DNA of 64,000 bases. It comes from Escherichia coli (GTDB taxonomy: Bacteria; Pseudomonadota; Gammaproteobacteria; Enterobacterales; Enterobacteriaceae). The position numbers and the translations under genes were made by a program. The notes under the pieces are model-generated. The model had not been told where the DNA came from, searched no databases, and was given only the letters and a program-made list of their open reading frames with translations. Positions 3,993 through 45,060 of the stretch are shown here, one piece after another. The stretch lies in the NCBI RefSeq assembly GCF_044647545.1, contig NZ_CP172818.1; one strand, given 5' to 3'. Each line of letters begins with the position of its first letter. The stretch's first letter is position 1.

Positions 3993-4250
3993 TTAGCGAT
4001 TATCGAGCTGAGCGCGAACTTTATTCAGCTCGGTGGTGTTGATTCGATAGGGCTGGCCATTGACGGACTTGATAAGTTTTTTGGTTTTGAGTTTTTTGAA
4101 GACGGCGAGCGTGCAGTCGGTCAGCAACAGCCCTTCGCGGCTGTAGCATTCAACGGAAGTGACGCGGCCTGAAGAATCGCGGACGTGCGCAATACGTCTA
4201 CCTTTAGCGAGAACGTGTAAGGTATGTTGTTCCTGACGGGATAAATTCAT
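3993..4250 (-). CDS. topAI: Topoisomerase I inhibitor toxin TopAI (YjhX)
   Basis: 85-aa [28 protein letters not shown]...; small toxin-sized gene upstream of yjhQ. Confidence 0.8.
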
Positions 4251-24631: not shown

Positions 24632-26584
<1,953 letters not shown>

Positions 26585-26587
26585 TCC

Positions 26588-27739
26588 TTACAGCATCTCA
26601 ATAAAGGCCGCGACACGGGTACTGAGCTGCCCGACATCCGAGGTGGAGTAGTCTGTTTCAATAGCGATATAAGGAATGTTGTGCTGCTGGCGCACATGAC
26701 GTTTAATCGCCAGCGATTCCACCGCGTAGGTATGGCACGCCTGCAAAATCACATCAACTACGCCATCGACCTGATATTCCTCCACCATCTGGCTGAGCAT
26801 TTTCAGGCGCTGATCGTTCGGCGAAACACAGGAGCAGCCAATCGCCAGATATTTATCCGCCAGCGCGTCGTAGACATCGCCCGTTTCTGCCACGCATTGC
26901 TCGGTCGCTTTCGCCCCGGTGCAGTTTTCATAACCGACAACCCAGCCGCCATTCTCTTCAATCGCGCGCACCACTTTTTCTGCTGCGCCGCCAATCGGGC
27001 AGCCGGTGATTAAAATGCGCGGACGCGGGTCCAGTCGCTGGCCTTCTTCCCACTGCTGACGAACGCGGGCGGTCATTGCATCCAGTTCATTGATCAACGC
27101 CTCTTTATCGAACCGGAAGGTTGCGCCGTAAACCACTTTCAGAATGTCGCTGCCGCTAAGCGCCGGAGGATTTAACTGCCCAAGATGATAAAAATTAGCC
27201 AGTGCGCGACGTTCGCGGTTTTTCAGCGCAATGGCATCGCGCAGAGCATCTTCGCTAATCTCGTGCCCAAAACGTTCTTCTACCGTTTTTTGCAAGCGCA
27301 GCATCTCGGCTTTCCATAACGCACGCGAGGCATCGTCCTTAACGCTGTTGGGCAATTGCATCACATGAACAGGCTTAAACTCCGCCATGTATTCATACAT
27401 TTTCTTTTTGCCGTCGCAGGTGGTTTCACCGACCACCAGATCCGAAAAGTAGAAGTAGGGGCATTTATCGGTTTTGCCGAAGCCGTAGCTGCTTTTAATC
27501 AGCGGGCAGAGGTTGCGCGGCAGATCTTTCTCCGCTTCTTCAATGGTTTCATCAGAGGTGGAACAGAGCGAAACCACAACCGCACCGGCTGCCATCGGGA
27601 TCTCTTGCGGCATAAAGGTGCAGTAAGTGCCAACCAGCGGAATGCCGCGCTCCTTGAGATCCATGACGGTGAGAAAGCCTGTCTGGCGAGCTTCAGAGAA
27701 CTGATCGAAAATGGCGGGTAGATCGGTGACAAGTGACAT
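26588..27739 (-). CDS. yjiM: 2-hydroxyglutaryl-CoA dehydratase-like (HgdB/HgdC family) protein
   Basis: ORF 26588-27760; ATG at 27737-27739 (MSLVTDLPAIFDQF...) with RBS GGAAGG; conserved Cys residues. Confidence 0.85.
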   Translation of the reverse strand: MSLVTDLPAIFDQFSEARQTGFLTVMDLKERGIPLVGTYCTFMPQEIPMAAGAVVVSLCSTSDETIEEAEKDLPRNLCPLIKSSYGFGKTDKCPYFYFSDLVVGETTCDGKKKMYEYMAEFKPVHVMQLPNSVKDDASRALWKAEMLRLQKTVEERFGHEISEDALRDAIALKNRERRALANFYHLGQLNPPALSGSDILKVVYGATFRFDKEALINELDAMTARVRQQWEEGQRLDPRPRILITGCPIGGAAEKVVRAIEENGGWVVGYENCTGAKATEQCVAETGDVYDALADKYLAIGCSCVSPNDQRLKMLSQMVEEYQVDGVVDVILQACHTYAVESLAIKRHVRQQHNIPYIAIETDYSTSDVGQLSTRVAAFIEML

Positions 27740-27854
27740 GATTTTCCTTCCCCGTACCACGGGAGATAATGAAAAGAGGCCACATTATTACCATTCTTTT
27801 AGTATGGTTTATTTGATCTCTCTCGCGGTTAGCCACTTAGTTTTTCATGGATTT

Positions 27855-29135
27855 CTAAAAATTGCCGAGGGGGAACAAGGCCGGGAGCTGCGACAGCAAA
27901 TATAAAATTAGCCCAATACAACCGCCAACCAGCGTACCGTTGACACGAATAAACTGCAGATCTTTGCCGATATTTAACTCTATTTGCCGCGACATATCCC
28001 GCGCATCCCAGCTTTTTACCGTATCGCTGATGTGGCGCGTCAGGAATGCGGAAAACTCAGGCGCGACGCGGTGCGCGGCTTGTTCAAGATGACCATTTAA
28101 CGACGCCCGCAAGGCATCATCGGCAATTAACGTTTCGCCAAACCATTGACCCGCTCGTGCGATGCGTTCTTTCACACGAGAATCTTCACTGTTGATATCC
28201 ACTTTCAGCCATTCCCGTAAATCCCCCCACAATTCACTGAGATAGCGATTAAAAGCTTCATCTTCTTTCAGATAGCTTTTTACGGCATCGGCTCGCGCTG
28301 CCATTTCCGGATCGTTTTTCAGCTTGTCGATCAGGGCGAAGGTGGCGCGATCAAACGCATGGCGGATCTGATGCGCACGATCGCGACTAATATCATCAAG
28401 CAAAGAATTCACCGCGTCAGAAACCAACTCCGCGCTATGTTCGCCCAACCATTCGGTGGGGAGAATTTTGGCTTTCAGTGGATGCTCGCTCTCCAGCCAG
28501 CGAACAATTTGCTGGGCGATAAACTTGCGCGATTTATCGCGCTGGAGAAGGGCGATCAACTGTGCGATCAGCGTATCCAGCAGCACCTGATGACGATCGT
28601 TTTTGGTCATACTCTCCAGCATCAACGCACTGGTGCCGGAAAGATCGACCTTATCAATCGCCCGATGGACCGCGCGCTTAAGCAGGCGCTGAATACGCGC
28701 ATCATCGGTAAGTTCGAGAAAACCGCTCATGATCTGCAACAGATGCTGACCAACGCGGCGGGCGTTTTCTGGCTGGCTAAACCAGTTGCCAATCAGCAAC
28801 GCCGGTTCGTGGCGTCGAATCAATGCCACCAGGGATTGAGTATCAAGAAATTTTTCCTGCACGAACTGGCCGAGATTTTCGCCAATCCGGTCTTTATTAC
28901 GCGGGATAATCGCCGTATGGCGAGAAATGATCGGAATCGGCACGCGGCGAAACAGCGCCACCACCGCAAACCAGTCCGCCAGCGCGCCGACCATCGCCGC
29001 TTCAGCAATCGCCTTCACGCCGCTCACCCAAAAATTGGGCGGCAAAAACAGCGTAACGACAAAGGTAGCAGCGGCGATAAGCAGTAAAGAGAGCGCCAAC
29101 ATTTTGGCGCGTCTGAGTTCAATGAGTTTATTCAT
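27855..29135 (-). CDS. yjiN: DUF445 inner-membrane protein
   Basis: 426-aa ORF with N-terminal TM segments. Confidence 0.8.
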
Positions 29136-29175
29136 AACGTTAAGAATAGAGCCTGACGGCAGGATCGCGCAAAAA

Positions 29176-30363
29176 TCACTGCTCCTCTGCCAGCTCGGCA
29201 GCCTGATGTTGGCGCACGCGATTAAGCAATCCCGCCAGGGTGAAAACGACGATAACGCCCGCCACGACGGCTAACAGATGAAACGGCAAGCGACCGCCGT
29301 TAAACCACAGCCACCGGCCGATTTCGACCGAGACAGACATCACCATCAGGATCACCATATTCAGCGATGCGGAGACGGTCCCTTTCGGTAAGTTATTGGA
29401 AAACAGCGTAAAGCGGAATAAGGTCGGGAAGATCAAACCAATCCCGAAAGCATACAAACTGGTGCCCAGCACCGACCACAGCCATACGTGCGGTGACAGC
29501 AGATTGCCGATAATCAACAGCGCGAGGCCAACCAGTTGAATGGGTACGGCACGCCAGATAAAGCGCGGTTCGGTCGGATCTTTAACGAAACGCGCCACGA
29601 TGGCATTCGCGACAATCACCGCGCCGAACACCGGAACCTGTGTCCAGGCGAACTGCGAGGTCGTTAAGCCGCCTGCGTCAATCAGGATCACCGGCGAGAC
29701 AGCCACCCAACTCATCATTGGGATATAGCTTAAAGAGATGGTTGCTGCACCAAAGAGGAACTGCCGATTGCAAAAGACATTACGAAAATCGCGCAAGACG
29801 CTTTTGGCGCTAAATGAAACCGCGCCGCGCTTCACCGTCTCTGGCATCGCCAGCAGTAAGCCAACAAATGAGATAAAACCCATAATCGCAATGATGGCAA
29901 AAAGGACTTTCCAGTGTACAAAGTGCATCAGAGCTGCGCCGGAAAGCGGGCCGATAATCGGCGCAATCAGTACGATGGAGGTGATAATCGCCATCAACCT
30001 GATCCCTTTTGTCTGGCCGAACGCCTCCTGCACCGTGACATAACCAACGGTGGCAATAAAACAGATACTGGTGCCCTGAATTGCACGCGCGATAAGAAAC
30101 TGTGTCATAGACGTTGTGAACATTGTCGCAGCGCAGGCAAGGGTAAATATTAGCGCCCCGGTAATCAGCACCGGCCTGCGGCCAATCCTGTCGGAAAGCG
30201 GCCCCAGCAGCCACTGTAACGCCATACCGCCCGCGAGATAGAGACTGACGGCTGCCGGGGCCAGACTGACATCGGCATTAAAATCACGGACCACATTAAT
30301 GATCCCCGGCTGAATCAGGTCCGTCGACAGGTACGCGGCAAAATCATACAAAATCAACGCCAT
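29176..30363 (-). CDS. mdtM: MFS multidrug efflux pump MdtM; 5' end disrupted by the adjacent poly-G block
   Basis: Native-looking frame from ...[24 protein letters not shown]...; the ORF-track start (30453) lies in the G-rich block; first credible in-frame ATG is 30361-30363. Confidence 0.75.
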
Positions 30364-30376
30364 CGGGAAAAACAGC

Positions 30377-31205
<829 letters not shown>

Positions 31206-31332
31206 AGGACGCTGGTGCACTAATGACGAAACAAAGGAGGGGTTCTTCACGTTTGTGAAGGTGCCGAAACTGGATATGGACTATTGAGTGAAATGTCAGG
31301 CCGCAGATGCGGCGCCATCATCCGGCCCAAAA

Positions 31333-32289
31333 TTACTTCCTCAACCCCGCAAACGCTGCCCGAATCTCTTCCTCCGGCAACTGAATCCCGATAAACACCA
31401 TCGTGCTATGCGGTTTTTCATCGCCCCACGGGCGGTCCCAGTCGGCGCTGTAGAGGCGTTGGACGCCCTGGAATAGCAGGCGGTTAGGTTCGCCGTCAAT
31501 CCATAGCATCCCTTTGTAACGCAGTAGTTTATCCGCCGACTCCAGCAGCAGGTTTTCCATCACCCGGGAAACTTCGCTGATATCTACCGGGTAATCCAGT
31601 TCCACCACAATCGACGAAATATCGTTTTGTTTGTCCGCGATAAAGTGGAAACGCGGTTTGGTGCTGACGACGTTTTCTTCCAGCATAAAACCGTTGGTGT
31701 TGAACAGAAGGCCCAGGTCGATATCGCCGTGGGTAACGGTGTAGACCGGTGCGCGGGCGTTGATGCGCGCCAGGCGTTCACGCAGTTTCTCTGCTTCGCC
31801 TGCGACGTCGGTTTTCGTCAGCAGAATACGGTCGGCGTAGCCAACCTGGGACTGGGCGATGGTGAACTGGTTCATCTGCTCATCGGCATGTACCGCATCC
31901 ACCAGCGCAATCACGCCGTCCAGCAGGTAGCGCTGGCATAAAATCTCATGGGAGAAAAAGGTCTGAATAATCGGGCCGGGATCGGCCATGCCGGTGCATT
32001 CAATGACCAGACGGTCGAACTGAATATTGCCCTTGTCGAGATTATCCAGCAGGTCGAGTAGTGCGTCTTCCAGCTCGTTGGAGCGCGAACAGCAGATGCA
32101 GCCGTTGGTCAGCGTTTTGATCTGCGTGGCGCGGTCGCCAATCAGTTGATCATCAACGGAGACTTCGCCGAATTCGTTTTCAATCACGGCAATCTTGTAG
32201 CCGTGTTGTTCGTTAAGAATATGGCGCAGCAGGGTGGTTTTGCCCGCGCCTAAAAAACCGGTGAGTAGGGTAACTGCAATCGGGTTCAT
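31333..32289 (-). CDS. yjiA: GTP-binding metal chaperone of the COG0523 family
   Basis: ORF 31333-32373; ATG at 32287-32289 gives MNPIAVTLLTGFLGAGKTTLLRHILNEQHG... (318 aa); P-loop and CxCC motif. Confidence 0.9.
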   Translation of the reverse strand: MNPIAVTLLTGFLGAGKTTLLRHILNEQHGYKIAVIENEFGEVSVDDQLIGDRATQIKTLTNGCICCSRSNELEDALLDLLDNLDKGNIQFDRLVIECTGMADPGPIIQTFFSHEILCQRYLLDGVIALVDAVHADEQMNQFTIAQSQVGYADRILLTKTDVAGEAEKLRERLARINARAPVYTVTHGDIDLGLLFNTNGFMLEENVVSTKPRFHFIADKQNDISSIVVELDYPVDISEVSRVMENLLLESADKLLRYKGMLWIDGEPNRLLFQGVQRLYSADWDRPWGDEKPHSTMVFIGIQLPEEEIRAAFAGLRK

Positions 32290-32299
32290 GCTCTCTCCA

Positions 32300-32503
32300 T
32301 TAACAACAGCGCATACCGCCTTTACCATCGCCGCCGTAGCGTGCGTTCTGGCGTTCGCGGAAGAATTCTTCATAGCTCATGTACGGCTTGTCGGGATGGT
32401 TGGTCTTCATATGCTCGACGTAGTTGTCGTAGTCTGGAATGCCAATCAACATCTTCGCCGCCTGGCCGAGATATTTTTTTGCCTGTCCTAAGTTACCAAA
32501 CAT
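32300..32503 (-). CDS. yjiX: Small conserved protein YjiX
   Basis: 67-aa [70 protein letters not shown], immediately downstream of btsT. Confidence 0.85.
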
Positions 32504-32552
32504 AGTTCACTCTGATAAGAACAAAGCCCCGCCGAAGCGGGGCTAAACACGG

Positions 32553-34703
32553 TTAGTGGTGCGAAGAGATCTTCACGCCGCCTTCCGGGATTGGAACGTA
32601 CGGTGTTTCTTTGTCAGTACGTTTGTCGCTGTTACGCACCGCAAGCCAGGTTTTGAAACCGTAGAAGATGATGCTGTACACCACAATCAGGAACAGAATA
32701 CTCAGACCTGCGTTGGTGTAGTTGTTCACAACGATGTGGTTCATGTTGGCAATCTGCTGCGCCGTCAGGTCAGTACCGTTAGCAATCTTCTCTTTGTACT
32801 GGCTTGCCATGTAGAAGAAGCCTTCCATCTGCGGGTTGGTGCTGAACAGTTTCAGGCCCAGCGCCCAGGTGGTGCAGATAAGCAGCCATACAGCCGGAAC
32901 AACAGTTACCCAGATGTATTGGGTGCGCTTCATCTTAATCAGCACAACGGTGCCCAGTACCAGCGCTACGGCTGCCAGCATCTGGTTGGAAATACCGAAC
33001 AGCGGCCACAGGCTCTTAACGCCGCCCAGCGGATCGACCACGCCCTGATACAGCAGGTAGCCCCACAGACCCACACAGCCCGCAGTACCGATGATACCGG
33101 CAACCAGAGAGTCGGTTTTTTTCAGGAACGGGATGAAGTTACCCAGCAGGTCTTGCAGCATAAAGCGGCCAGAACGGGTACCCGCATCCAGCGCGGTCAG
33201 GATGAACAGTGCTTCGAACAGAATACCGAAGTGATACCAGAAGCCCATGTCAGCCATCGGCAGCACTTTGTGGAACACGTGAGCGATACCTACCGCCAGC
33301 GTCGGCGCACCACCTGCACGGTTCAGGACAGAAGGCTCACCAATGTCTTTCGCGGTTTGCAGGATCTGCTCTGGCGAAATCACGAAGCCCCAGGAGCTGA
33401 CGGTCGCTGCCGCGTGTGCGGTAACGTCTTTCAGCTGCGCCATGATGATCGGCGCGTTCTCGCCACCCATTTCATGCAGGTTAGGCATGGTGATGCCAAG
33501 GCCAGCAGGCGGGGTGTTCATCGCGAAGTAAAGACCCGGTTCGATGATGGACGCAGCAACCAGCGCCATAATCGCCACGAAGGACTCCATCAGCATTGCG
33601 CCGTAGCCGATGAAACGCGCGTCGGTTTCATTAGCCAGCAGTTTTGGCGTCGTACCGGAAGAGATCAGCGCGTGGAAGCCAGATACCGCACCACAGGCGA
33701 TGGTGATGAACAGGAACGGGAACAGAGCGCCTTTCCACAGCGGGCCAGTACCGTCAATGTACTGGGTCATGGCAGGCATTTTCAGTTCCGGGTTCAGCAC
33801 CACGATACCCAGCGCCAGGCCGACGATAACGCCGATTTTCAGGAAGGTTGCCAGATAGTCGCGCGGTGCGAGGATCAGCCACACCGGCAGCAGTGCGGAA
33901 ACAAACGCATAGCCAATCAGCGCGAAGGTAATGGTGGTGTCTTTAAAGGTCAGTGCCGGACCCCAGTACGGATCGTGAGCAATCACGCCACCGAAGTAGA
34001 TAGAGGCAACCAGCAGCACGATACCAATGACAGAGACTTCACCCACACGCCCCGGACGAATAAAGCGCATGTAGATACCCATAAACAGCGCAATCGGTAC
34101 GGTTGAGCAAACGGTGAAGACACCCCACGGACTTTCGGCCAGGGCTTTAACCACAATCAGCGCCAGGACGGCGAGGATGATGATCATGATTAAGAAACAG
34201 CCAAACAGCGCGATAGTCCCCGGTACTGGTCCCATCTCTTCTTTGATCATCTCACCAAGAGATGCGCCATTACGGCGAGAGGAGATAAACAGCACCATAA
34301 AGTCCTGAACCGCACCGGCCAGCACGACCCCCGCCAGCAGCCACAGCGTGCCAGGCAGGTAGCCCATCTGCGCGGCGAGAACCGGACCCACCAGCGGACC
34401 AGCACCGGCGATAGCGGCGAAGTGGTGACCAAACAACACGTAACGGTTGGTCGGAACGTAGTTCAGACCGTCGTTGTTAATAACCGCAGGCGTCGCGCGC
34501 GTGGGGTCGAGTTTCATCACCTTCTGGGCGATGTACAGACTGTAGTAGCGATACGCCACCAGATACACCGATACAGAGGCGACCACGATCCACAGGGCGC
34601 TGACGTGCTCCCCCCGACGTAATGCAACTACCGCGAGGCAGAATGCACCGATGATTCCGAGAATCACCCAGGGTATGTGCTTGAATATCTTTTTAGTATC
34701 CAT
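32553..34703 (-). CDS. btsT: Pyruvate/H+ symporter BtsT (CstA family)
   Basis: ORF 32553-34718; ATG at 34701-34703 gives MDTKKIFKHIPWVILGIIGAF... (716 aa). Confidence 0.9.
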   Translation of the reverse strand: MDTKKIFKHIPWVILGIIGAFCLAVVALRRGEHVSALWIVVASVSVYLVAYRYYSLYIAQKVMKLDPTRATPAVINNDGLNYVPTNRYVLFGHHFAAIAGAGPLVGPVLAAQMGYLPGTLWLLAGVVLAGAVQDFMVLFISSRRNGASLGEMIKEEMGPVPGTIALFGCFLIMIIILAVLALIVVKALAESPWGVFTVCSTVPIALFMGIYMRFIRPGRVGEVSVIGIVLLVASIYFGGVIAHDPYWGPALTFKDTTITFALIGYAFVSALLPVWLILAPRDYLATFLKIGVIVGLALGIVVLNPELKMPAMTQYIDGTGPLWKGALFPFLFITIACGAVSGFHALISSGTTPKLLANETDARFIGYGAMLMESFVAIMALVAASIIEPGLYFAMNTPPAGLGITMPNLHEMGGENAPIIMAQLKDVTAHAAATVSSWGFVISPEQILQTAKDIGEPSVLNRAGGAPTLAVGIAHVFHKVLPMADMGFWYHFGILFEALFILTALDAGTRSGRFMLQDLLGNFIPFLKKTDSLVAGIIGTAGCVGLWGYLLYQGVVDPLGGVKSLWPLFGISNQMLAAVALVLGTVVLIKMKRTQYIWVTVVPAVWLLICTTWALGLKLFSTNPQMEGFFYMASQYKEKIANGTDLTAQQIANMNHIVVNNYTNAGLSILFLIVVYSIIFYGFKTWLAVRNSDKRTDKETPYVPIPEGGVKISSHH

Positions 34704-34838
34704 AGTAAAACCTGGCATGTATTGATTAATAGTTGGCCGAAGCCGTTCTAGGTTTGCGTTGCGTTTGAGGAGGTAAATTGACCGCTATCCTGTAGTGATG
34801 TTGCCAGAGTTACGCGCGCGTAAAGTAAGGTAAATAAC

Positions 34839-34867
34839 TGAGTGGTTATTTTAGGGATGTAAGCGGT
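34839..34867 (-). promoter_or_regulatory. BtsR (YehT, LytTR-type) binding site: direct repeat ACC(G/A)CT(C/T)A-N13-ACC(G/A)CT(C/T)A
   Basis: Minus strand reads ACCGCTTA-catccctaaaata-ACCACTCA, about 150 bp upstream of btsT. Confidence 0.65.
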
Positions 34868-34912
34868 CAGTTTTGCGGTTGAGCGGCAAAGGCGTCGTTT
34901 AAGTGACGATAA

Positions 34913-34934
34913 ATATGTGATTCATATCACATAT
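34913..34934. promoter_or_regulatory. CRP binding site with a perfect TGTGA-N6-TCACA core
   Basis: atatgTGTGAttcataTCACAtat; the flanks extend it to an 11-bp inverted repeat with a 4-bp spacer (34911-34936). Confidence 0.65.
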
Positions 34935-35022
34935 TTATATTGTGAATAATTTATGTAAATAATGGCTTTTTAAATTCAGAGTGTGAATAAAATTACTCGG
35001 CGTAATCTCCGCGGGATATTCA

Positions 35023-35049
35023 TAAAGTTTTTCCTTTCCAGGCCGAAAA
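35023..35049 (+). promoter_or_regulatory. Sigma-28 (FliA) class 3 flagellar promoter for tsr
   Basis: TAAAGTTT-N11-GCCGAAAA against consensus TAAAGTTT-N11-GCCGATAA, 30 bp upstream of the tsr ATG. Confidence 0.7.
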
Positions 35050-35079
35050 TCTTGCATCGGTCCACAGGAAAGAGAAACC

Positions 35080-36744
35080 ATGTTAAAACGTATCAAAATT
35101 GTGACCAGCTTACTGCTGGTTTTGGCCGTTTTTGGCCTTTTACAACTGACATCAGGCGGTCTGTTCTTTAATGCCTTAAAGAATGACAAAGAAAATTTCA
35201 CTGTTTTACAAACCATTCGCCAGCAGCAATCCACGCTGAATGGCAGCTGGGTCGCGTTGTTGCAGACGCGTAACACCCTCAACCGCGCGGGTATCCGCTA
35301 CATGATGGATCAGAATAATATTGGTAGCGGTTCAACCGTTGCTGAGCTGATGCAGAGTGCCAGTATTTCGCTGAAACAGGCGGAAAAAAACTGGGCGGAT
35401 TACGAAGCGTTGCCGCGTGACCCGCGTCAGAGCACCGCCGCAGCGGCAGAGATCAAACGTAATTACGATATTTATCACAATGCGCTGGCGGAGCTGATCC
35501 AACTGTTAGGTGCAGGCAAAATCAACGAGTTCTTTGATCAGCCGACTCAGGGATATCAGGACGGTTTCGAGAAGCAGTATGTGGCTTACATGGAACAAAA
35601 CGATCGGCTCCATGATATCGCCGTCAGCGATAACAATGCCTCCTACAGCCAGGCGATGTGGATTCTGGTGGGCGTGATGATCGTCGTACTGGCGGTCATC
35701 TTCGCCGTCTGGTTCGGTATTAAAGCCTCGCTGGTAGCGCCAATGAATCGCCTGATTGACAGCATTCGTCATATTGCAGGCGGCGATCTGGTGAAACCGA
35801 TTGAGGTGGATGGCTCTAATGAGATGGGGCAACTGGCAGAGAGTTTGCGCCATATGCAGGGAGAGCTGATGCGTACCGTCGGTGATGTGCGCAACGGGGC
35901 CAATGCCATCTATAGCGGTGCCAGCGAAATCGCTACCGGCAATAACGATCTCTCTTCGCGCACCGAGCAACAGGCTGCTTCGCTGGAAGAGACGGCAGCC
36001 AGCATGGAGCAACTGACCGCAACGGTGAAACAGAACGCCGAGAATGCGCGCCAGGCCAGCCACCTGGCGTTAAGTGCTTCTGAAACGGCGCAACGCGGCG
36101 GCAAAGTGGTAGATAACGTGGTGCAGACTATGCGTGATATCTCCACCAGTTCGCAGAAAATCGCCGATATTATCAGCGTAATTGACGGCATTGCCTTCCA
36201 GACCAATATTCTGGCTTTGAACGCGGCGGTTGAAGCAGCGCGTGCGGGTGAGCAAGGACGTGGTTTTGCGGTGGTTGCGGGAGAAGTGCGTAATCTGGCC
36301 CAGCGTAGCGCCCAGGCGGCTCGTGAAATTAAAAGCCTGATTGAAGACTCGGTGGGGAAAGTGGATGTTGGCTCTACGCTGGTCGAAAGCGCCGGGGAAA
36401 CAATGGCGGAGATTGTCAGTGCTGTGACCCGCGTGACGGACATTATGGGCGAAATTGCTTCTGCTTCTGATGAGCAGAGCCGTGGTATCGATCAGGTTGG
36501 CTTAGCGGTTGCTGAGATGGACCGGGTAACTCAACAGAACGCCGCGCTGGTGGAAGAATCTGCCGCCGCCGCCGCCGCGCTGGAAGAGCAGGCCAGTCGC
36601 CTGACCGAAGCAGTGGCAGTGTTCCGGATTCAGCAACAGCAGCAACAGCAGCGTGAAACATCGGCTGTGGTAAAAACCGTGATGCCAGCTGCGCCGCGTA
36701 AAATGGCCGTGGCAGATAGCGGTGAGAACTGGGAAACGTTTTAA
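35080..36744 (+). CDS. tsr: Methyl-accepting chemotaxis protein I (serine chemoreceptor)
   Basis: 554-aa [30 protein letters not shown]... with HAMP, methylation helices and C-terminal NWETF pentapeptide. Confidence 0.9.
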
Positions 36745-36792
36745 TCGCCATAAAAATGCCCGATAAGCAAAATGTTATCGGGCATAGGGAGA

Positions 36793-38154
36793 TTAATCTT
36801 TCCGTGGGTCGTTGATCGGCTGACGAACCAGGAAGATGTACGCCAGTGCCCCCGCTGCGGTGACGCAACCGCAGATGATTAGTGCCAGACGGAATGAGTG
36901 GGTGGTATCAACAATAAAACCAGTAATGATCGGCGCAAAAGAGGCGCAGATGAAGCTGGCAAAGTTCTGGATACTGCCCACCGACGCAGTCATGCGAGAA
37001 GCAACTGCGACGTGGATCAAGCCCCAGCAGGATGTTCCGGCAAAGTGAATACAGAACAGTGCCATACCAATCAGCAGAACCGCTGTCATGGATGTTGTCG
37101 CTTGCGGTACGACCAGCGTAAAGGCGGCAGAACAGAACATCCCGGCAATAATGCAGATCTTACGGCTTTTAATCGGAGCCATTCCCCCTTTGACCAGCCA
37201 GTCAGTAACGTAACCGTTGACCAGCATCCCGGCAGCCCCAAACAGGAAAGGGATAGCCGCCATCAACCCTGTGCTTTTTAAATCCAGGTTATAGGCTGTT
37301 TGCAGGTAACCAGGAAGCCAGGCCAGATACAGCCACGCAGTGTAGTTGATGCCACTGAATCCGAGCATCATTCCCCACATTGTGCGGTTACGGAACAAGC
37401 TGCGCCATTCGGCAAAACTGAGCGGATCTCGGCGGGCATTGACGCTACCTGCATTGAGATAAGCTTGTTCAACGGCAGTCAGTTCTACGTGCTCGCGGTT
37501 GCGATAGAGCATATACCAGCCGATGGCGAGAAAAATCCCCAGTACACCAATGGTAATAAACATCCCGCGCCAGCCCATCACCAGCATCATCGCCGCCAGA
37601 ATCGGTGGGCTTACGGCAACGCCAATGGTAGAAGCTGCGTTGAAGAAGCCCATCGGGCGTCCGCGCTCTTTGATGTTGAACCAGTCGTTAATGACTTTTA
37701 CACCGCATGGGTTCATCGGCGCTTCACCAATTCCCATACCGATACGCACCAACACGAACTGCGTAAAGCTGTGCACCATGCCAGACATTGCCTGGAACAG
37801 TGACCAGAAGAACATCCCCAGTCCCAACATCAGGCGCGGGCCTTTACGATCCAATAGTGGGCCGCAAGGAAGTTGCGCAATCCCGTAAGCGAGTGAAAAC
37901 ACGGAGAGCAAAGCGCCGATTTCGGTGGCACTTAATCCCAATTCTTCACGAATCGTTAAATTTGCTACCGACAGCGAACTGCGGTCGAGATAATTGATTA
38001 CCGCCGCAAAAAATAATAACAACATGGCGGTGGTTTGAATGCGTTTAATTCGGGTACTGCGTTGAACTAATCCATCTGGTGGCACGGGAATATCTGCCGA
38101 CGAAGATGGAGTAAATGAAGAACGCGGATCGAGGGTGATATTTTCTTTTTCCAC
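36793..38154 (-). CDS. lgoT: L-galactonate:H+ symporter (MFS)
   Basis: 453-aa MFS ORF. Confidence 0.8.
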   Translation of the reverse strand: MEKENITLDPRSSFTPSSSADIPVPPDGLVQRSTRIKRIQTTAMLLLFFAAVINYLDRSSLSVANLTIREELGLSATEIGALLSVFSLAYGIAQLPCGPLLDRKGPRLMLGLGMFFWSLFQAMSGMVHSFTQFVLVRIGMGIGEAPMNPCGVKVINDWFNIKERGRPMGFFNAASTIGVAVSPPILAAMMLVMGWRGMFITIGVLGIFLAIGWYMLYRNREHVELTAVEQAYLNAGSVNARRDPLSFAEWRSLFRNRTMWGMMLGFSGINYTAWLYLAWLPGYLQTAYNLDLKSTGLMAAIPFLFGAAGMLVNGYVTDWLVKGGMAPIKSRKICIIAGMFCSAAFTLVVPQATTSMTAVLLIGMALFCIHFAGTSCWGLIHVAVASRMTASVGSIQNFASFICASFAPIITGFIVDTTHSFRLALIICGCVTAAGALAYIFLVRQPINDPRKD

Positions 38155-38370
38155 GCCGGACTCCTGTATTTATAATTTTAATTGTTTACGTAATTGTGCA
38201 TTACGCAAGGTTGACATTAACGGCAGGTTAAAGTTTTAGGACTTTACTACCGCTCACAAAAAAACATTTTTAGTCGACTGATTGTGAGCATAGGTAAGCG
38301 GGAATTTTCCGGTATTTATCTTTTGATAAAACCGTGCACCCGCTAATAGTTTGCTGTTTTTAATCCGTAC

Positions 38371-39285
38371 TTAATGAGCATAACGCATGTTCTCATTAAT
38401 GGATCGAATCATTGATTGTTTAGCTGAATTCAAATGGTTACGGAGCGCAAGGGTGGCATCAAGGTCACTGCGGCAAATCAGAGCGCTGAGAATGGTCATA
38501 TGCTCATCGACGGCAATGATATTGCGCTGTTTAAGATCGCTTTCGTCCCATTGATAGTGAAAATGAAAGATGACTGATATGATCTCAAGCGATTGTTCAA
38601 AAAAGATATTGTCGGCAGCTGAAAGCAGTAAGGAGTGAAAATCTCTGTCAAGTTGCGAGAACATGCGAAAGCTATTGCCGATGTTGTCACGCAGTAGCCT
38701 GTGACGTTCGAGCATGGTTTTCGCCTGCAGCCAGCGGGGATCATGATCAGGCAGGTTGAGAAAGTGCTGAAGTGAATGTGTTTCGAGCATTTCGCGTAGC
38801 TCAAACAGCTGCTCGGCGTAGGATTGATCGAATTGCTTCATGCTCCACTGGCCGCGCTTTTCGCTTTGAATAAGATTATAACGGCCGAATTTTAAAAGAT
38901 ATTCTCTTACAACCACCGGGCTGACACCCGCGGCCCGAGCCAGTTGCAGTTCAGAAAAAGTTTCCCCTGGGCGTAACTGGCGCTGGTTTATCATCGTGAA
39001 AAAAGCCTGCTCAAACACTTTGTTTTGTTCACTCATTGAAGCGGTAGTACAGGCGAAACCGTCATCATGGTCAGGTTTACGCGCAATAACATAGTCGTTT
39101 CCAACCTGCGTTAAGACGCCGCATTCGCGTAAGTGGCTGAGAATATGACGCACTGTAGTGCGGCTGATGTTGTACATTTCCGCCAGCGCACTTTGCGATG
39201 GAAGTGGGGAAGGGATATGACCCCGCGCCATATCATCAATGACCTGGTTAATCACATTGTGGCGTAAATTTTGTGAACGACTCAT
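38371..39285 (-). CDS. lgoR: GntR-family transcriptional regulator of L-galactonate catabolism
   Basis: 304-aa ORF with N-terminal HTH (..MYNISRTTVRHILSHL..). Confidence 0.8.
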   Translation of the reverse strand: MSRSQNLRHNVINQVIDDMARGHIPSPLPSQSALAEMYNISRTTVRHILSHLRECGVLTQVGNDYVIARKPDHDDGFACTTASMSEQNKVFEQAFFTMINQRQLRPGETFSELQLARAAGVSPVVVREYLLKFGRYNLIQSEKRGQWSMKQFDQSYAEQLFELREMLETHSLQHFLNLPDHDPRWLQAKTMLERHRLLRDNIGNSFRMFSQLDRDFHSLLLSAADNIFFEQSLEIISVIFHFHYQWDESDLKQRNIIAVDEHMTILSALICRSDLDATLALRNHLNSAKQSMIRSINENMRYAH

Positions 39286-39423
39286 ATTTTCCTCCTTGTG
39301 AGTCCATTAAAACCCGATTTAAAACATTTTTATGCGCGTGTTTTCACAAAACAGATTTTCCGTTCCGCTGCCATTTTTCATTTTCATTGATATCTAAGGC
39401 AACAAAAAATGGAGAGCCGAATC

Positions 39424-40446
39424 ATGTCTACGATGAATGTTTTAATTTGCCAGCAGCCGAAAGAATTAGTCTGGAAACAACGCGAGATTCCTATTCCGGG
39501 TGACAATGAAGCATTAATAAAAATTAAGTCTGTCGGGATTTGCGGTACCGATATTCATGCCTGGGGTGGAAATCAACCATTTTTTAATTATCCACGGGTT
39601 TTAGGCCATGAAATATGTGGGGAGGTTGTTGGGCTGGGTAAAAATATTGCTGATCTTAAAAATGGTCAGCAAGTTGCTGTGATCCCTTATGTTGCCTGTC
39701 AGCAATGCCCGGCGTGTAAAAGCGGGCGTACCAATTGCTGTGAAAAAATTTCAGTCATTGGCGTGCATCAGGATGGCGGTTTTAGTGAGTATTTGAGCGT
39801 GCCGGTGGCGAACATTTTGCCCGCAGACGGTATTGACCCGCAGGCGGCCGCATTGATTGAACCTTTCGCTATTAGCGCTCATGCGGTGCGTCGCGCAGCC
39901 ATTGCTCCCGGCGAGCAGGTGCTGGTGGTCGGAGCGGGGCCAATCGGTCTGGGCGCGGCGGCAATCGCTAAAGCCGATGGCGCACAGGTGGTGGTGGCGG
40001 ATACCAGTCCGGCGCGCCGTGAACATGTGGCAACGCGTCTGGAGTTGCCCGTGCTGGACCCGTCAGCCGAAGATTTTGACGCGCAGCTGCGGGCGCAGTT
40101 TGGTGGTTCGCTGGCGCAGAAAGTGATCGACGCGACAGGTAATCAACATGCGATGAATAACACCGTGAATCTGATTCGTCACGGCGGCACGGTGGTATTT
40201 GTCGGCCTGTTTAAAGGTGAGTTGCAGTTCTCCGATCCGGAATTCCATAAAAAAGAAACGACGATGATGGGCAGCCGCAACGCCACGCCGGAAGATTTCG
40301 CTAAAGTCGGTCGACTTATGGCGGAAGGGAAAATCACTGCCGACATGATGTTAACCCATCGCTATCCGTTCGCCACGCTGGCAGAAACCTACGAGCGCGA
40401 TGTGATTAACAATCGTGAGTTAATTAAAGGCGTAATTACTTTCTGA
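39424..40446 (+). CDS. lgoD: L-galactonate 5-dehydrogenase (zinc-dependent MDR family)
   Basis: ORF 39409-40446; ATG at 39424 (MSTMNVLICQQ...) with RBS GGAGAG; GHEICGEV zinc motif and GAGPIG Rossmann motif. Confidence 0.85.
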   Translation: MSTMNVLICQQPKELVWKQREIPIPGDNEALIKIKSVGICGTDIHAWGGNQPFFNYPRVLGHEICGEVVGLGKNIADLKNGQQVAVIPYVACQQCPACKSGRTNCCEKISVIGVHQDGGFSEYLSVPVANILPADGIDPQAAALIEPFAISAHAVRRAAIAPGEQVLVVGAGPIGLGAAAIAKADGAQVVVADTSPARREHVATRLELPVLDPSAEDFDAQLRAQFGGSLAQKVIDATGNQHAMNNTVNLIRHGGTVVFVGLFKGELQFSDPEFHKKETTMMGSRNATPEDFAKVGRLMAEGKITADMMLTHRYPFATLAETYERDVINNRELIKGVITF

Positions 40447-40473
40447 TAAGGCGAGATTATTAAAGTTGCCATG

Positions 40474-40508
40474 CAGCGTCCGGGGAAGTGTTGGGCGCTG
40501 TTTTTTTT
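40474..40508 (+). terminator. Intrinsic terminator after lgoD
   Basis: Hairpin cagcgtcc...gggcgctg followed by tttttttt. Confidence 0.7.
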
Positions 40509-40527
40509 CTGTTTCTCAATGATGTTT

Positions 40528-40576
40528 TGTAGGCCGGAGAAGGTGTGTAGGTCGCACCTTATGCGACCTACACATC
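40528..40576. repeat. REP-like palindromic element
   Basis: tgtaggccggagaaggtgtgtaggtcgcaccttatgcgacctacacatc, between the convergent lgoD and opgB. Confidence 0.55.
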
Positions 40577-40585
40577 AGTCAGGAA

Positions 40586-42877
40586 TTACCCTTCACGTTC
40601 CACAACTTTAATTTCCACCATGCCGATCCCGAGCTTACGCGGCGAGTGTCCGAGGATATTCCCTTCGTTGGTTGAGACAGGTTCCGGCGGCACAATTACC
40701 AGTGTGTCGGCATCGGTTGGGTTATCGAAATGCAGTGTGGTGGTGGTCACTTCATTGCCCAGCACAAGAGTTTGTTCTTCATTGCCTACGCGTACCGGAA
40801 TAGGACGGCTGGCGTTATTGCCGTATGCTTTGGCGGTAATCACCAGGTCAAATTTCTTCGGCAGCGGATGCTTGTACTCGATTTTTACTTCATCGCCCAG
40901 CTGCGCGTTGGACCAGCGGCCCCACGACTCCGGACGGGAAATCCCGCTAAACTGTTTCACCTCTTCTGGCGCACCGGCGACGTTAAAGATGAAACTGTCG
41001 GCTTTGTAGCGAATATCGTTATCAACAATCTTCAGCGTATCGACATTGCCTTTGTAACGCGCCATGTCGATGACCGTATCTTTAAATGCCGTCTTGCTCT
41101 TCCATGTTGTTTTGTCAACATGCTGGACAATTTGCTGACCGCCAAGCTGCCCCTGCGAGACACACCAGTCGGTGGAAAGTGCCAGTTCCGGAGCCCAGAG
41201 TTGTGCCATCTTATAGCAACGGTCAACCCAGACGAAATTGTCGCGTGGAGCGAAATCGGCCAGCTGGAAACGCAGCGGTGCTGAGTATTCGCTTTCCGGC
41301 AGCGGTTCCACGCGTTTGTCTGAAACCCGCAACAGCAGCGGCAAACGGAAATGGCTACCCGAGAAGGCAATCATGTTTTTCTGCTGGTCGATGGTGAACT
41401 CTTTCATCTCTTTAGGGAATTTCCACAGGCGGATGATATCTGGCTTCCACGCCAATGTTTTCTCTTTGATATTGAGGAAGATTTCCGACATCGACTGCCC
41501 GGATAAACTGCTACGACCAAGTCCGAGATAGTTATCGCCACCGAGAATGTCCAGCACCGTCGCGCCGTTATCCATCGTGTTACGCTTCACTGCCAGCGTC
41601 TCTTGCTGCGGCTTGTCGCCACGAATGACAAAAAACAGGTTATTGCGATCCTGCTTATTGAGGTATTTCCACGCCGTGTTGTTCATCGCTAAATGGTCAG
41701 AAGAGACGACGATGACAGTATCTTTAAACCACGGTGACGCTTTGATTTTGTTGATAAACGTCGCGATATTCTCCTGGCTGCAACTTACCGCGCTGAATGA
41801 CTGATTCGGTTTACCGTCAAAATCATATTTTTTGCGGTTACAGGTACGAGAAATAAAACCATCCGGGTGATGGGTATCGACTGTCAGGGTAAACAGTGAG
41901 AATCGCTGACCTGAGCGGGAAAGCTCTTCAAACTTTTTCCACGCTTCATCGAGAACGGTATCGTCGTAGAATCCCCAGTCGTTGCGATAGTGCGGGTCGG
42001 CTACCACGCTTTTCAGCTCTTCTGAGCCGTATAAGTGGTCGAAGCCGTGCGATTTCAGGAACACATCTTTACCGGCAAAACGCAGATTTGCGCCCTGCAC
42101 GAAATAGTTCTGATAACCCGAGTTTTTCAGGATATCGCCCAGACAGATGTTCTGCGGGAAGAAGCTGGAGACAGAGGCGGAGGCGTTGCCTTCAAAGGGG
42201 GCAAACAGCGGTATGCCGCACTGAGAAGCCACCATGCCCGCAATCGTGTAATCCGTTCCTGGCAGCTGCTGCGTGTGGCTGAAATCCAGGCCTTCATTTT
42301 TCAACGCGCCCAGTTCAGGCGTGAGATCCGGGAAAGCCTCGTTATCAAAATAGGTTCGCTCGAGACTTTCGCCATAGATATAAACCAGGTTGAGTTTCGG
42401 GTCAGGGATAGTTTTCGACGGCTCTTTATAATAAGCCGCAAAGTCCGGGTCGCCATCGCGTGACTGGGATTTCACCAGTTCCGTTATCTGACGAAATGCC
42501 GGGCTGGCGTCCACCGAACCCAGCGCCAGTAAGAGCGCCAGCAGGCTGTAACCAAAATGGTGCGGATGATGGCGACGACGGCGCAGGATCCAGCCCAGCG
42601 CACCGAACACCGCTGTCAGCCCCAGCACAATGCCGATACCCGGCAGGATGTATTTGCTGACGCCAGCACCGGTCAGGCTGTTGGTTAAGGTATAGAGAAC
42701 CGCGTCGTTAATACCATCGCCAGTAAAATAGTCGCTGGCAAACAGGGTGATATTTAAAACGACAAATAGCCCCAGCACTGTTAATGTGGCTGCAAACCAC
42801 CAGGTGTTACGTCCCGCTTTCCATGCGTAAATCAGCACAGAGGCGAGAAAAAGGGCGAAAGAGAGTAGTTCTGACAA
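40586..42877 (-). CDS. opgB: Phosphoglycerol transferase I (osmoregulated periplasmic glucan biosynthesis)
   Basis: 763-aa ORF with N-terminal TM domain and sulfatase-like domain. Confidence 0.9.
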
Positions 42878-43130
42878 CGGGCGATCCTCACTAAACCGGG
42901 CCGTTTAGCCAACGTTTAAGCTTTTTGAGAAGCACAATGTAATGGCGTCGCCATATTGCTGCAATTCTAGTGTCAAAAAAATGCGATGTTGTTAGGAATT
43001 AGTTTATAAACAGACTTTTTTGATCGCGGTCGCTTCCCGTGTAACAGGGGGAAAACCGTCCAGGAGCAGGGAAAAGGGCAGGAGAGAGCCGCGTCAGCCG
43101 GGTAACAGCTAAAACGCGGCGTTTCGCGGT

Positions 43131-43628
43131 TCAGGAAATGAAGTTCAGCCCCTGCTTTAACACCAGATCGCAGGCTTTGGTTTTCACCTTTTCTGCCAGC
43201 GGAGTCGTTCCGATGTTATCCAGATTGAGTTGCTGACCATCTTTGGTTTTCAGCAAACCCTGAATGCCATCCAGATAGTTGGTGTCTTCTTTTTGCTCTT
43301 CACTGTTCAGGCCCAGCTTTTCCAGCACCTGGTTCTTGATGTTTTCGGCATCGGTTACCGAAGCCAGCTTTTGCTTCGCGCAGTATTGCAGAATGCCTGC
43401 GGCGTTGTTCATGTTATCTGCGCTTAAGCCCTGGTTCCCGCTGCTAAGCAAGTTAGTTAATGACGCGAGCGACCAACCGCCTTCCTGTGTCGTGCTGTTT
43501 TGGTTGCCAAGTTCGCTGGCGGCGCTGGAGAGCGCATCTTTCCAGGACGCAGCATGCACCCCGGTGGAAATTAATGCGCTGGCGGCAATGGCACAGCACA
43601 GAAGATGTTTAACAGTTTTCATCATCAT
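43131..43628 (-). CDS. yjjA: DUF2501 periplasmic protein
   Basis: 165-aa ORF with signal peptide MMMKTVKHLLCCAIAASALISTGVHA; exact start Met uncertain. Confidence 0.75.
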   Translation of the reverse strand: MMMKTVKHLLCCAIAASALISTGVHAASWKDALSSAASELGNQNSTTQEGGWSLASLTNLLSSGNQGLSADNMNNAAGILQYCAKQKLASVTDAENIKNQVLEKLGLNSEEQKEDTNYLDGIQGLLKTKDGQQLNLDNIGTTPLAEKVKTKACDLVLKQGLNFIS

Positions 43629-43673
43629 TACTCAAGGTGGAATTGTGTAGCAGTATACCGCCAGAAACGGGGA

Positions 43674-44411
43674 TTAATACTCTTTACCTGTTACACGGCT
43701 ACGGTAGCTATCCCAGTTGAAGATCACCCACAAACTGTTACCCAGGCGCATACGGTCCATCACGCGTTCGCCCAGCAACTTGGTCATCTCTTCCATATTA
43801 CTGTTGGTCAGCATCCCGGTTGGGCGTTTGGAAGAAGAGCGGCGATCGACGATCTGGTTGATGATCACTTTTTCGTATTTCGATTCGGTCTGCACGCCGA
43901 TCTCATCGATCACCAGCAGATCAACGTTGCTCAGATCGTTAAGCAGTTGTTCTTCGCTGGTACCGCTATTCCTGAAGGTATCTTTCATCGCCGACATAAT
44001 ATCGGCCACGGTGATGATCAATACGGATTTACCGCGTAGCAGCAGCTCGTTGCAGATTGCCGCCGCCAGATGGTTTTTGCCGGTTCCTGGCTTACCAGAA
44101 AAGATGAAGCTGGCGATGTTGCCGTCAAACTCTTCGACATACTGGCGCGCTTTGCTTAACGCATTCATCTGCCCTTCACACTCAACGCGATAGTTCTCAA
44201 AGGAGCAGTTCTGATGCAGTGGACGAATACCGGAGCGGTTAAAGGTGCGCTGCATTTTCATCGCCCGATTTTCACGTTCGAGAGCGGCGGAGCGGATCGC
44301 TCCTTGTTCTTTTTGCCAGGCCAGTAGTTCTTCACCCGTTTTGAATGCGGGTTTGATATGGGCAGGCATCATCTTTTGCAGGCGTTGCATCAGGTCGCCA
44401 ACGTTTTTCAT
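43674..44411 (-). CDS. dnaC: Helicase loader DnaC
   Basis: 245-aa ORF with Walker A GKPGTGKNHLAAA. Confidence 0.95.
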   Translation of the reverse strand: MKNVGDLMQRLQKMMPAHIKPAFKTGEELLAWQKEQGAIRSAALERENRAMKMQRTFNRSGIRPLHQNCSFENYRVECEGQMNALSKARQYVEEFDGNIASFIFSGKPGTGKNHLAAAICNELLLRGKSVLIITVADIMSAMKDTFRNSGTSEEQLLNDLSNVDLLVIDEIGVQTESKYEKVIINQIVDRRSSSKRPTGMLTNSNMEEMTKLLGERVMDRMRLGNSLWVIFNWDSYRSRVTGKEY

Positions 44412-44413
44412 CG

Positions 44414-44953
44414 TTACCCTCTGAATCCTGGTGGAATTTGGCTGTCAGGTTCACTGACCGTATTCACATCTCGTTTCGGCAGTCCGCCGTTGCTGGCACG
44501 ACCGATTTGCAGGCTGCGCGCCAGTTTTTGTTGCCACTGTACATGGTGAAAGACTTTACCTTCCGCCTGCCAGTAGGCAATGAATGAGGCCAGTTCTTCG
44601 GTGGTCACCGGCTCTCTTAGTGCCACGCCCCATAGCGCCGCCAGGCGGATAAAGTCGGCATCGGGTTGCCAGTCCGGATACATGGCGAATTTCCCCATGG
44701 GTACAGCAACGGGAGCGGCTTGCGGTTCCTGATAGAGTTGATCGTCCAGAGCGACATCGCTTCCCGGACGCGCCAGCTTTTCTTCCAGCGCCAGCAGTTC
44801 AGCCAGGCGTGCAGGCGTGACGGCATAAAACGCCGGGGCATTGTTAGCAAATACGGCAACCACACCGCCTTCAGCTTTTGCCAGAACGGTTTGGTGATCC
44901 TGTACCAGGGCGTCAATACCAACGACGTCCGGGGTCAAAACTCTGGAAGACAT
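44414..44953 (-). CDS. dnaT: Primosomal protein DnaT
   Basis: ORF 44414-44965; ATG at 44951-44953 ([17 protein letters not shown]...); ends 2 bp before the dnaC start. Confidence 0.9.
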
Positions 44954-45060
44954 ACTGTTTCTCAAATATGGAACGATGAACGAGAAGGGAGATAACTTTT
45001 ATAGTAACACACGGAGGAGAGGAGGCTGTCTCTCATCCGCGTGCTTTAAGTGAGGCAATT

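Follow-up and report, generated by a model that had tools for sequence, protein, structure and literature searches.

A 9-bp coding repeat and length variation in the glutamine tract of the Tsr tether of Escherichia coli

The serine chemoreceptor Tsr carries at its C terminus the pentapeptide NWETF, where the adaptation enzymes CheR and CheB dock. Work from the Parkinson laboratory takes the conserved part of Tsr to extend to residue 517, followed by non-conserved C-terminal residues up to NWETF (PMC4692393). Counted from I517, the tether of K-12 Tsr is 30 residues long, and the tether of the related receptor Tar has 34 residues (PMC10561060). Engineered versions of Tar with tethers of 22, 29, 34 and 46 residues have revealed that the position of CheR is linear with tether length; the most probable position moves by 0.128 +/- 0.048 nm per tether residue, with an intercept of about 6 nm (PMC10561060). 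The natural Tsr alleles described below resemble these Tar variants in that both alter how many residues separate the helical bundle from NWETF. They differ in that the Tar variants are laboratory constructs with steps of 5-12 residues, whereas the Tsr alleles are natural, change in steps of three residues and vary in Gln only.

The other system to which this locus can be compared is the class of in-frame coding VNTRs that change by slippage. The Gln tract of tsr is like them in having a perfect repeat with a unit that is a multiple of 3, in varying by whole units, and in doing so recurrently on different backgrounds. The difference is one of degree: tsr has very few copies (1.3-4.3) in a short tract, which should make for modest instability. 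In the searchable literature we found neither a natural polymorphism of the Tsr Gln tract nor the use of tsr as a typing or variable locus; a match to 'tsr' in the MLVA literature concerns an unrelated Salmonella PCR marker named 'TSR'.

The tsr allele of the window

The window is a stretch of 64,000 nucleotides of E. coli DNA; the features that matter here are collected in Table 1. RefSeq gives the matching gene the name tsr in thousands of E. coli genomes, and the window gene has 0 differences at the DNA level from the tsr gene of strain Nissle 1917. The corresponding RefSeq protein, WP_000919544.1 (Nissle 1917, ATCC 8739, JE86-ST05 and others), is the same allele without any difference, and is present in the best 20-kb matches to the window. 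This allele is already known: it is found in RefSeq in hundreds of genomes and represents the usual wild-type form of a receptor that is very well known.

The preliminary description of this DNA had identified the gene as tsr, and there is abundant reason to agree. The protein is nearly identical over its full length to the experimentally studied K-12 Tsr, the gene occupies the conserved chromosomal place between btsT and lgoT (matching the annotation of K-12 and of JE86-ST05), and the protein ends in ...SGENWETF, with NWETF behind a non-conserved linker, as in other enterobacterial serine chemoreceptors of this type. Based on its identity to K-12 Tsr, the window protein would be expected to sense serine and to tether CheR and CheB. 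The surroundings of tsr are nevertheless not the same in every strain. In many strains (LF82, AR_0015, 2012C-4606 and others) the 3' neighbour is not lgoT, and TRAP transporter permease genes are found instead; in some strains the 5' neighbour is hpaR in place of btsT. Thus, tsr lies at a junction of variable gene content.

Table 1. Features of the tsr locus, in positions of the window
Feature	Position	Strand	Basis or remark
tsr coding sequence (serine chemoreceptor Tsr, 554 aa + stop)	35080..36744	+	ORF; DNA identical to Nissle 1917 tsr
Gln92 codon (Glu92 in K-12), periplasmic domain	35353..35355	+	coordinates computed from ORF start
C-terminal tether I517-E549, 33 residues (K-12: 30)	36628..36726	+	PMC4692393, PMC10561060; AF2 pLDDT <50 from 517
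Gln tract Q518-Q524, 9-bp tandem repeat CAGCAACAG x2 + CAG	36631..36651	+	sequence; TRF
Repeat unit 1 (CAGCAACAG)	36631..36639	+	sequence; TRF
Repeat unit 2 (CAGCAACAG)	36640..36648	+	alignment; K-12 is without one of the two units, which one being indistinguishable
Met535 codon ATG (K-12 T532)	36682..36684	+	Thr (ACG) in K-12, in outgroup L037 and in most alleles
Gly548 codon GGT (K-12 Glu545)	36721..36723	+	outgroups have Gly
NWETF pentapeptide codons (CheR/CheB docking site)	36727..36741	+	sequence; role from PMC4692393, PMC7390727
GC-rich terminator-like hairpin between the convergent genes tsr and lgoT	36756..36785	.	scored on - strand

The tsr gene of K-12 MG1655 is 1,656 bp long, exactly 9 bp shorter than that of the window, and encodes a protein of 551 aa (WP_000919536.1). 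The two genes share their neighbours (btsT-tsr-lgoT), their NWETF end and the location of the Gln tract directly after I517; they differ in that K-12 Tsr has four Gln (CAG CAA CAG CAG) and a tether of 30 residues, against seven Gln and 33 residues in the window. Outside the indel there are 24 nucleotide differences, and the complete list of protein differences between window and K-12 Tsr is E92Q, +QQQ, T532M and E545G. Much of what the preliminary description had proposed agrees with this alignment: a Tsr of 554 aa with seven consecutive Gln ahead of NWETF, a K-12 Tsr of 551 aa with four, and a difference between them that amounts to 9 bp in frame, exactly one repeat unit, such as slippage can produce. 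The Thr-to-Met difference that it listed is also real (T532 in K-12, M535 in the window), but E92Q and E545G had escaped it. As K-12 does have four Gln and not seven, the difference in length holds; what has to be reversed is its direction alone (see below).

The 9-bp repeat and its length classes

The seven Gln codons of the window read CAG CAA CAG CAG CAA CAG CAG. Tandem Repeats Finder reports, at 36631..36652, a repeat with a period of 9, 2.4 copies and 100% matches, that is, at least two perfect copies head to tail. The CAG/CAA triplet had originally been taken as the repeat unit, and the tract had been given as 36624..36653, a range that also spans the Arg and Ile codons ahead of it and, behind it, the first two bases of an Arg codon. 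The triplet does not survive as the unit, since the same program finds only 78% matches in a period-3 reading. Chance can be set aside as the source of the run: Gln makes up 7.8% of Tsr residues, and simple arithmetic from this figure gives an expectation of about 1e-5 for a seven-Gln run anywhere in the protein, so that chance is no explanation. The Gln tract is an ordinary low-copy in-frame tandem repeat within a well-known gene. Tandem Repeats Finder also detects GCC x5.7 at 36562..36578, which codes for an Ala run of Tsr. The length of this Ala run is constant in every E. coli tsr allele fetched, and the DNA alignment has no indel there, unlike at the Gln tract.

The lengths of the Gln tract were surveyed in complete E. 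coli genomes, in 5,382 of 5,426 of which the 3' end of tsr was found. The synthetic queries consisted of 45-bp flanks from the window, 1 to 4 repeat units and CAG, and a 9-bp indel relative to such a query brings the identity down to less than 95% or reduces the score by about 42 bits. The BLAST identity bands for the 10- and 13-Gln queries, and partly those for the 4-Gln query, are inflated by split alignments joined across the repeat; the counts for the 4-, 10- and 13-codon classes were taken at E-value thresholds attainable only by one unbroken alignment over the full length.

A 7-codon tract is by far the commonest. Tracts of the Gln type are found in 4,055-4,058 of the 5,382 genomes and the degenerate form QQEQQRQ in another 40, which are exactly the genomes missed by the Gln-type queries, giving about 4,095 genomes (76%) with the 7-codon length overall. 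The 4-codon tract occurs in 1,211 genomes (22.5%), the 10-codon tract in 68 (1.3%) and the 13-codon tract in 3 (0.06%). These classes together account for 5,377 of the 5,382 genomes, with about 5 unclassified, and two 60-row samples of the matches contained no lengths other than 4, 7, 10 and 13 codons. The natural frequency of the 4-Gln allele is probably below 22.5%, because 5 of the 15 rows in an evenly spaced sample of the 4-codon class are laboratory derivatives of K-12 or BL21. The exact 111-mer of the window, Met codon included, is present in about 704 complete genomes. No genome carries the Met haplotype with four Gln, the best identity to a synthetic query of that kind being 99.0-99.1%.

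All length changes between the tsr alleles that were fetched and aligned at the DNA level are exact multiples of the 9-bp unit, the 4, 7, 10 and 13 codons corresponding to 1.3, 2.3, 3.3 and 4.3 units. Two other kinds of repeat behaviour can be dismissed for this locus. CAG triplet expansion of the polyglutamine-disease type fits neither the poor period-3 match, nor the steps of 9 bp throughout, nor the fact that the commonest change is a contraction. A phase-variation or contingency locus is likewise rejected, since the 9-bp unit keeps all alleles in frame and Tsr is full length at 551, 554, 557 or 560 aa.

Position of the tract in the tether

The Gln tract begins at residue 518, at the transition from the cytoplasmic helical bundle to the disordered tether. 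In an alignment of Tsr orthologues the linker is variable and NWETF is conserved. An AlphaFold2 model built from 33 orthologues has a mean pLDDT of 68.8; in it the last helix runs through the tract to residue 527, but the pLDDT is below 50 from residue 517 onwards.

The Tar measurements allow a rough estimate of what one repeat unit might do. Calculated from the Tar figure, which was obtained with steps of 5-12 residues, three extra residues would shift CheR by about 0.4 nm on a scale of 6-10 nm. With 33 residues, the tether of the window Tsr is close in length to that of Tar. A change of three residues would probably have a small and near-neutral effect on the reach of CheR and CheB.

Direction and recurrence of the length changes

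The direction of change was judged against one divergent Escherichia genome (L037) and orthologues from other genera, a comparison that does not include E. albertii, E. fergusonii or Salmonella. The Tsr of L037 has 554 aa, with 94% protein identity and about 11% nucleotide divergence; its tail reads RIQQAQQRQHEALPVVKTVTPVASRKVAVTDSGDNWETF, with QQAQQRQHEA at the tract, and aligns without a gap against the window tail. In Leclercia, Enterobacter, Citrobacter, Kluyvera and others, most Tsr orthologues have 553-555 aa, and RIQQ[DES]QQ[KR] or close variants stand at this place. Counted from F515 to the end, the tail has 40 residues in the window, 39-41 in the close genera and 37 in K-12, which is shorter than all 32 others in the alignment (range 39-50). 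Within E. coli, the imperfect forms of the 7-codon tract connect the outgroup state to pure Gln. QQEQQRQ is encoded by CAG CAA GAG CAG CAA CGC CAG in the 40 genomes mentioned above, and QQQQQHQ by CAG CAA CAG CAG CAA CAT CAG in at least 244 E. coli genomes (SMS-3-5, for example). These alleles form a series of the same length by point substitution, in which Glu is replaced by Gln, and Arg first by His and then by Gln.

The preliminary description had read the comparison with K-12 the other way: the ancestral E. coli Tsr would have had four Gln, as K-12 does in its 551 aa, and the lineage of the window would have gained one 9-bp unit by slippage. This is not an unreasonable proposal, since the difference is exactly one unit and expansions do happen at the site, as the 10- and 13-Gln alleles demonstrate. 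It is nonetheless very improbable in the face of the survey and the outgroups. The supposed expansion is the length of about 76% of genomes, and it is the 7-codon form that aligns gap-free with the nearest outgroup and with the orthologues of other genera. Duplication of CAGCAACAG in a 4-Gln ancestor would not give imperfect intermediates of the same length such as QQEQQRQ and QQQQQHQ, which argues that the 7-codon length is ancestral, and the 4-Gln alleles belong to three or more unrelated haplotypes, every one of which has nearer relatives with seven Gln. The predominance of the 7-codon length, its gap-free alignment with the outgroups and the intermediates together indicate that the four Gln of K-12 are a derived one-unit contraction; on the sequence evidence, K-12 Tsr is a derived, minority form. 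There is next to no chance that the seven-Gln run is itself a sequencing or assembly error. Such an error might be suspected from a low-quality poly-G stretch in the window about 5.6 kb upstream of the tract, but the identical 111-mer recurs in about 700 complete genomes, the same length in about 4,055, and 13.7 kb around tsr are 100% identical to many finished genomes; the presence of the same sequence in hundreds of finished genomes refutes an artefact as its source.

The history that we favour for the tract, with a probability of roughly 85%, has the window carrying a common tsr allele of ancestral length. In this model, a Gln-rich heptad of the present length (QQ-x-QQ-R/K-x) would be older than E. 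coli. Point substitutions within E. coli (Glu to Gln; Arg to His to Gln) would have converted it to pure Gln and thereby created, as a by-product, a perfect 9-bp direct repeat (CAGCAACAG, 2.3 copies). This repeat would occasionally lose or gain whole units, most likely by replication slippage or by unequal exchange between the direct repeats, to yield alleles with 4, 10 or 13 Gln, among them the one-unit deletion of K-12, BL21 and their relatives. Each unit amounts to three residues of the tether, with a probably small, near-neutral effect on how far the adaptation enzymes can reach. With only 2.3 copies, the repeat should be weakly unstable.

Changes of tract length have recurred. Four Gln are found on three tail haplotypes, namely RETS..TPAAP..SEENWETF (K-12, BL21, ATCC 11775), TPVAP..MVVADSG (2017.02.03CC, F1005) and REAS..TPATP (2022E04-002). 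Ten Gln are likewise found on three, represented by HS, LF82 and EC6622, the last of which has the tail haplotype of the window. The 13-Gln alleles are closest to the 10-Gln allele of LF82. A particularly close pair is provided by the 4-Gln tsr of 2022E04-002, which differs at 2 of 1,656 sites from the 7-Gln tsr of AR_0015 and SW4848, and at 28 from K-12. Both the 4-Gln and the 10-Gln length thus occur on at least three flanking haplotypes; recombination may contribute to this recurrence. The pattern is consistent with recurrent slippage or with unequal exchange involving the 9-bp direct repeats.

An alternative that bears on these haplotypes is that homologous recombination has mainly moved a few original tracts between backgrounds, with little new slippage. 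Alleles of tsr are mosaic and common to several phylogroups; the tails of L004 and F1005 are identical, yet 26 sites differ overall, and EC6622 differs from the window at 23 sites in spite of its window tail. Furthermore, Nissle 1917 and ATCC 8739 share one Tsr protein and their tsr genes are 0-2 nt apart, and the tsr genes of K-12 MG1655 and the type strain ATCC 11775 are 0 nt apart, with the same LgoT protein; in each of these pairs the two strains presumably belong to different phylogroups. Such sharing suggests recombination across the region, and because tsr is mosaic across phylogroups, recombination probably does contribute to the spread of the length alleles. As the main source of the haplotype spread, though, it is rather unlikely. 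In 2022E04-002, the REAS/ATP haplotype shared with the 7-Gln relatives is retained within 6 nt on the downstream side of the tract, which would limit any imported segment to less than about 30 bp; the three distinct tail haplotypes found with 4 Gln, and the three with 10 Gln, also speak against this reading. In any case, recombination touches the number of events only, not the direction of change. The recurrence of length changes on several backgrounds could also be taken as a sign of selection, with tether length acting as a tuning knob that sets CheR/CheB reach and adaptation kinetics by niche, and with the short K-12 allele being adaptive or associated with the laboratory. Engineered Tar tether lengths measurably alter the distribution of the adaptation enzymes, and linker truncations are cited as impairing function (PMC10561060); moreover, the tail varies little among the close genera, at 39-41 residues. 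The step in question is nevertheless just three residues, with its expected shift of about 0.4 nm, and the tail ranges from 39 to 50 residues across the orthologues of other genera. No association with host or source is visible among the matches listed, and few genomes have 10 Gln (1.3%) or 13 Gln (0.06%). Maintenance of the length classes by selection is accordingly improbable in our estimation, and it seems just as doubtful that tethers of 30, 33, 36 and 39 residues (4, 7, 10 and 13 Gln) would give measurably different CheR/CheB reach and adaptation kinetics in serine taxis. If the tuning knob were real, the tether of K-12 Tsr would be unusually short beside those of most wild E. coli and of related genera, although it is this reference receptor that underlies essentially all of Tsr biophysics.

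On the favoured history of unit loss from a substitution-made repeat, this is an ordinary length polymorphism and carries little weight for biology at large. Its practical interest is that K-12, BL21 and their derivatives, in which nearly all quantitative work on chemotaxis has been done, carry a derived Tsr with a tether three residues shorter than that of about three quarters of sequenced E. coli. The K-12 tether is also shorter than in the orthologues of neighbouring genera, which is possibly useful to modellers of tethered CheR and CheB action. The tract further provides an example of how point substitutions in a Gln-rich segment can make a perfect direct repeat, which then varies in length.

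The tsr genes of AR_0015 and SW4848 have Leu in place of Arg at codon 516 (CGG to CTG), directly before the Ile-Gln tract. Residue 516 is among the last conserved residues of the signalling domain, and is Arg or Lys in the other alleles and in nearly all orthologues examined.

A further observation is the poly-G stretch upstream of tsr. Between mdtM (29176..30453, - strand) and yjiA (31333..32373, - strand), the window contains about 650 bp of near-pure poly-G or G-rich low-complexity sequence at 30395..31055 (+ strand). The best-matching genomes are 100% identical to the window on both sides of it (window 25000-30381 and 31327-45000), and at the site itself they have 1,824 bp with a partial dienelactone hydrolase gene, IS1 and brnT/brnA. 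In this part of the window, only positions ~31199-31329 match complete E. coli genomes, with 86% identity to the end of mrr. The stretch resembles an error of sequencing or assembly, at the hypervariable region of restriction genes (the 'immigration control' region), rather than biology.
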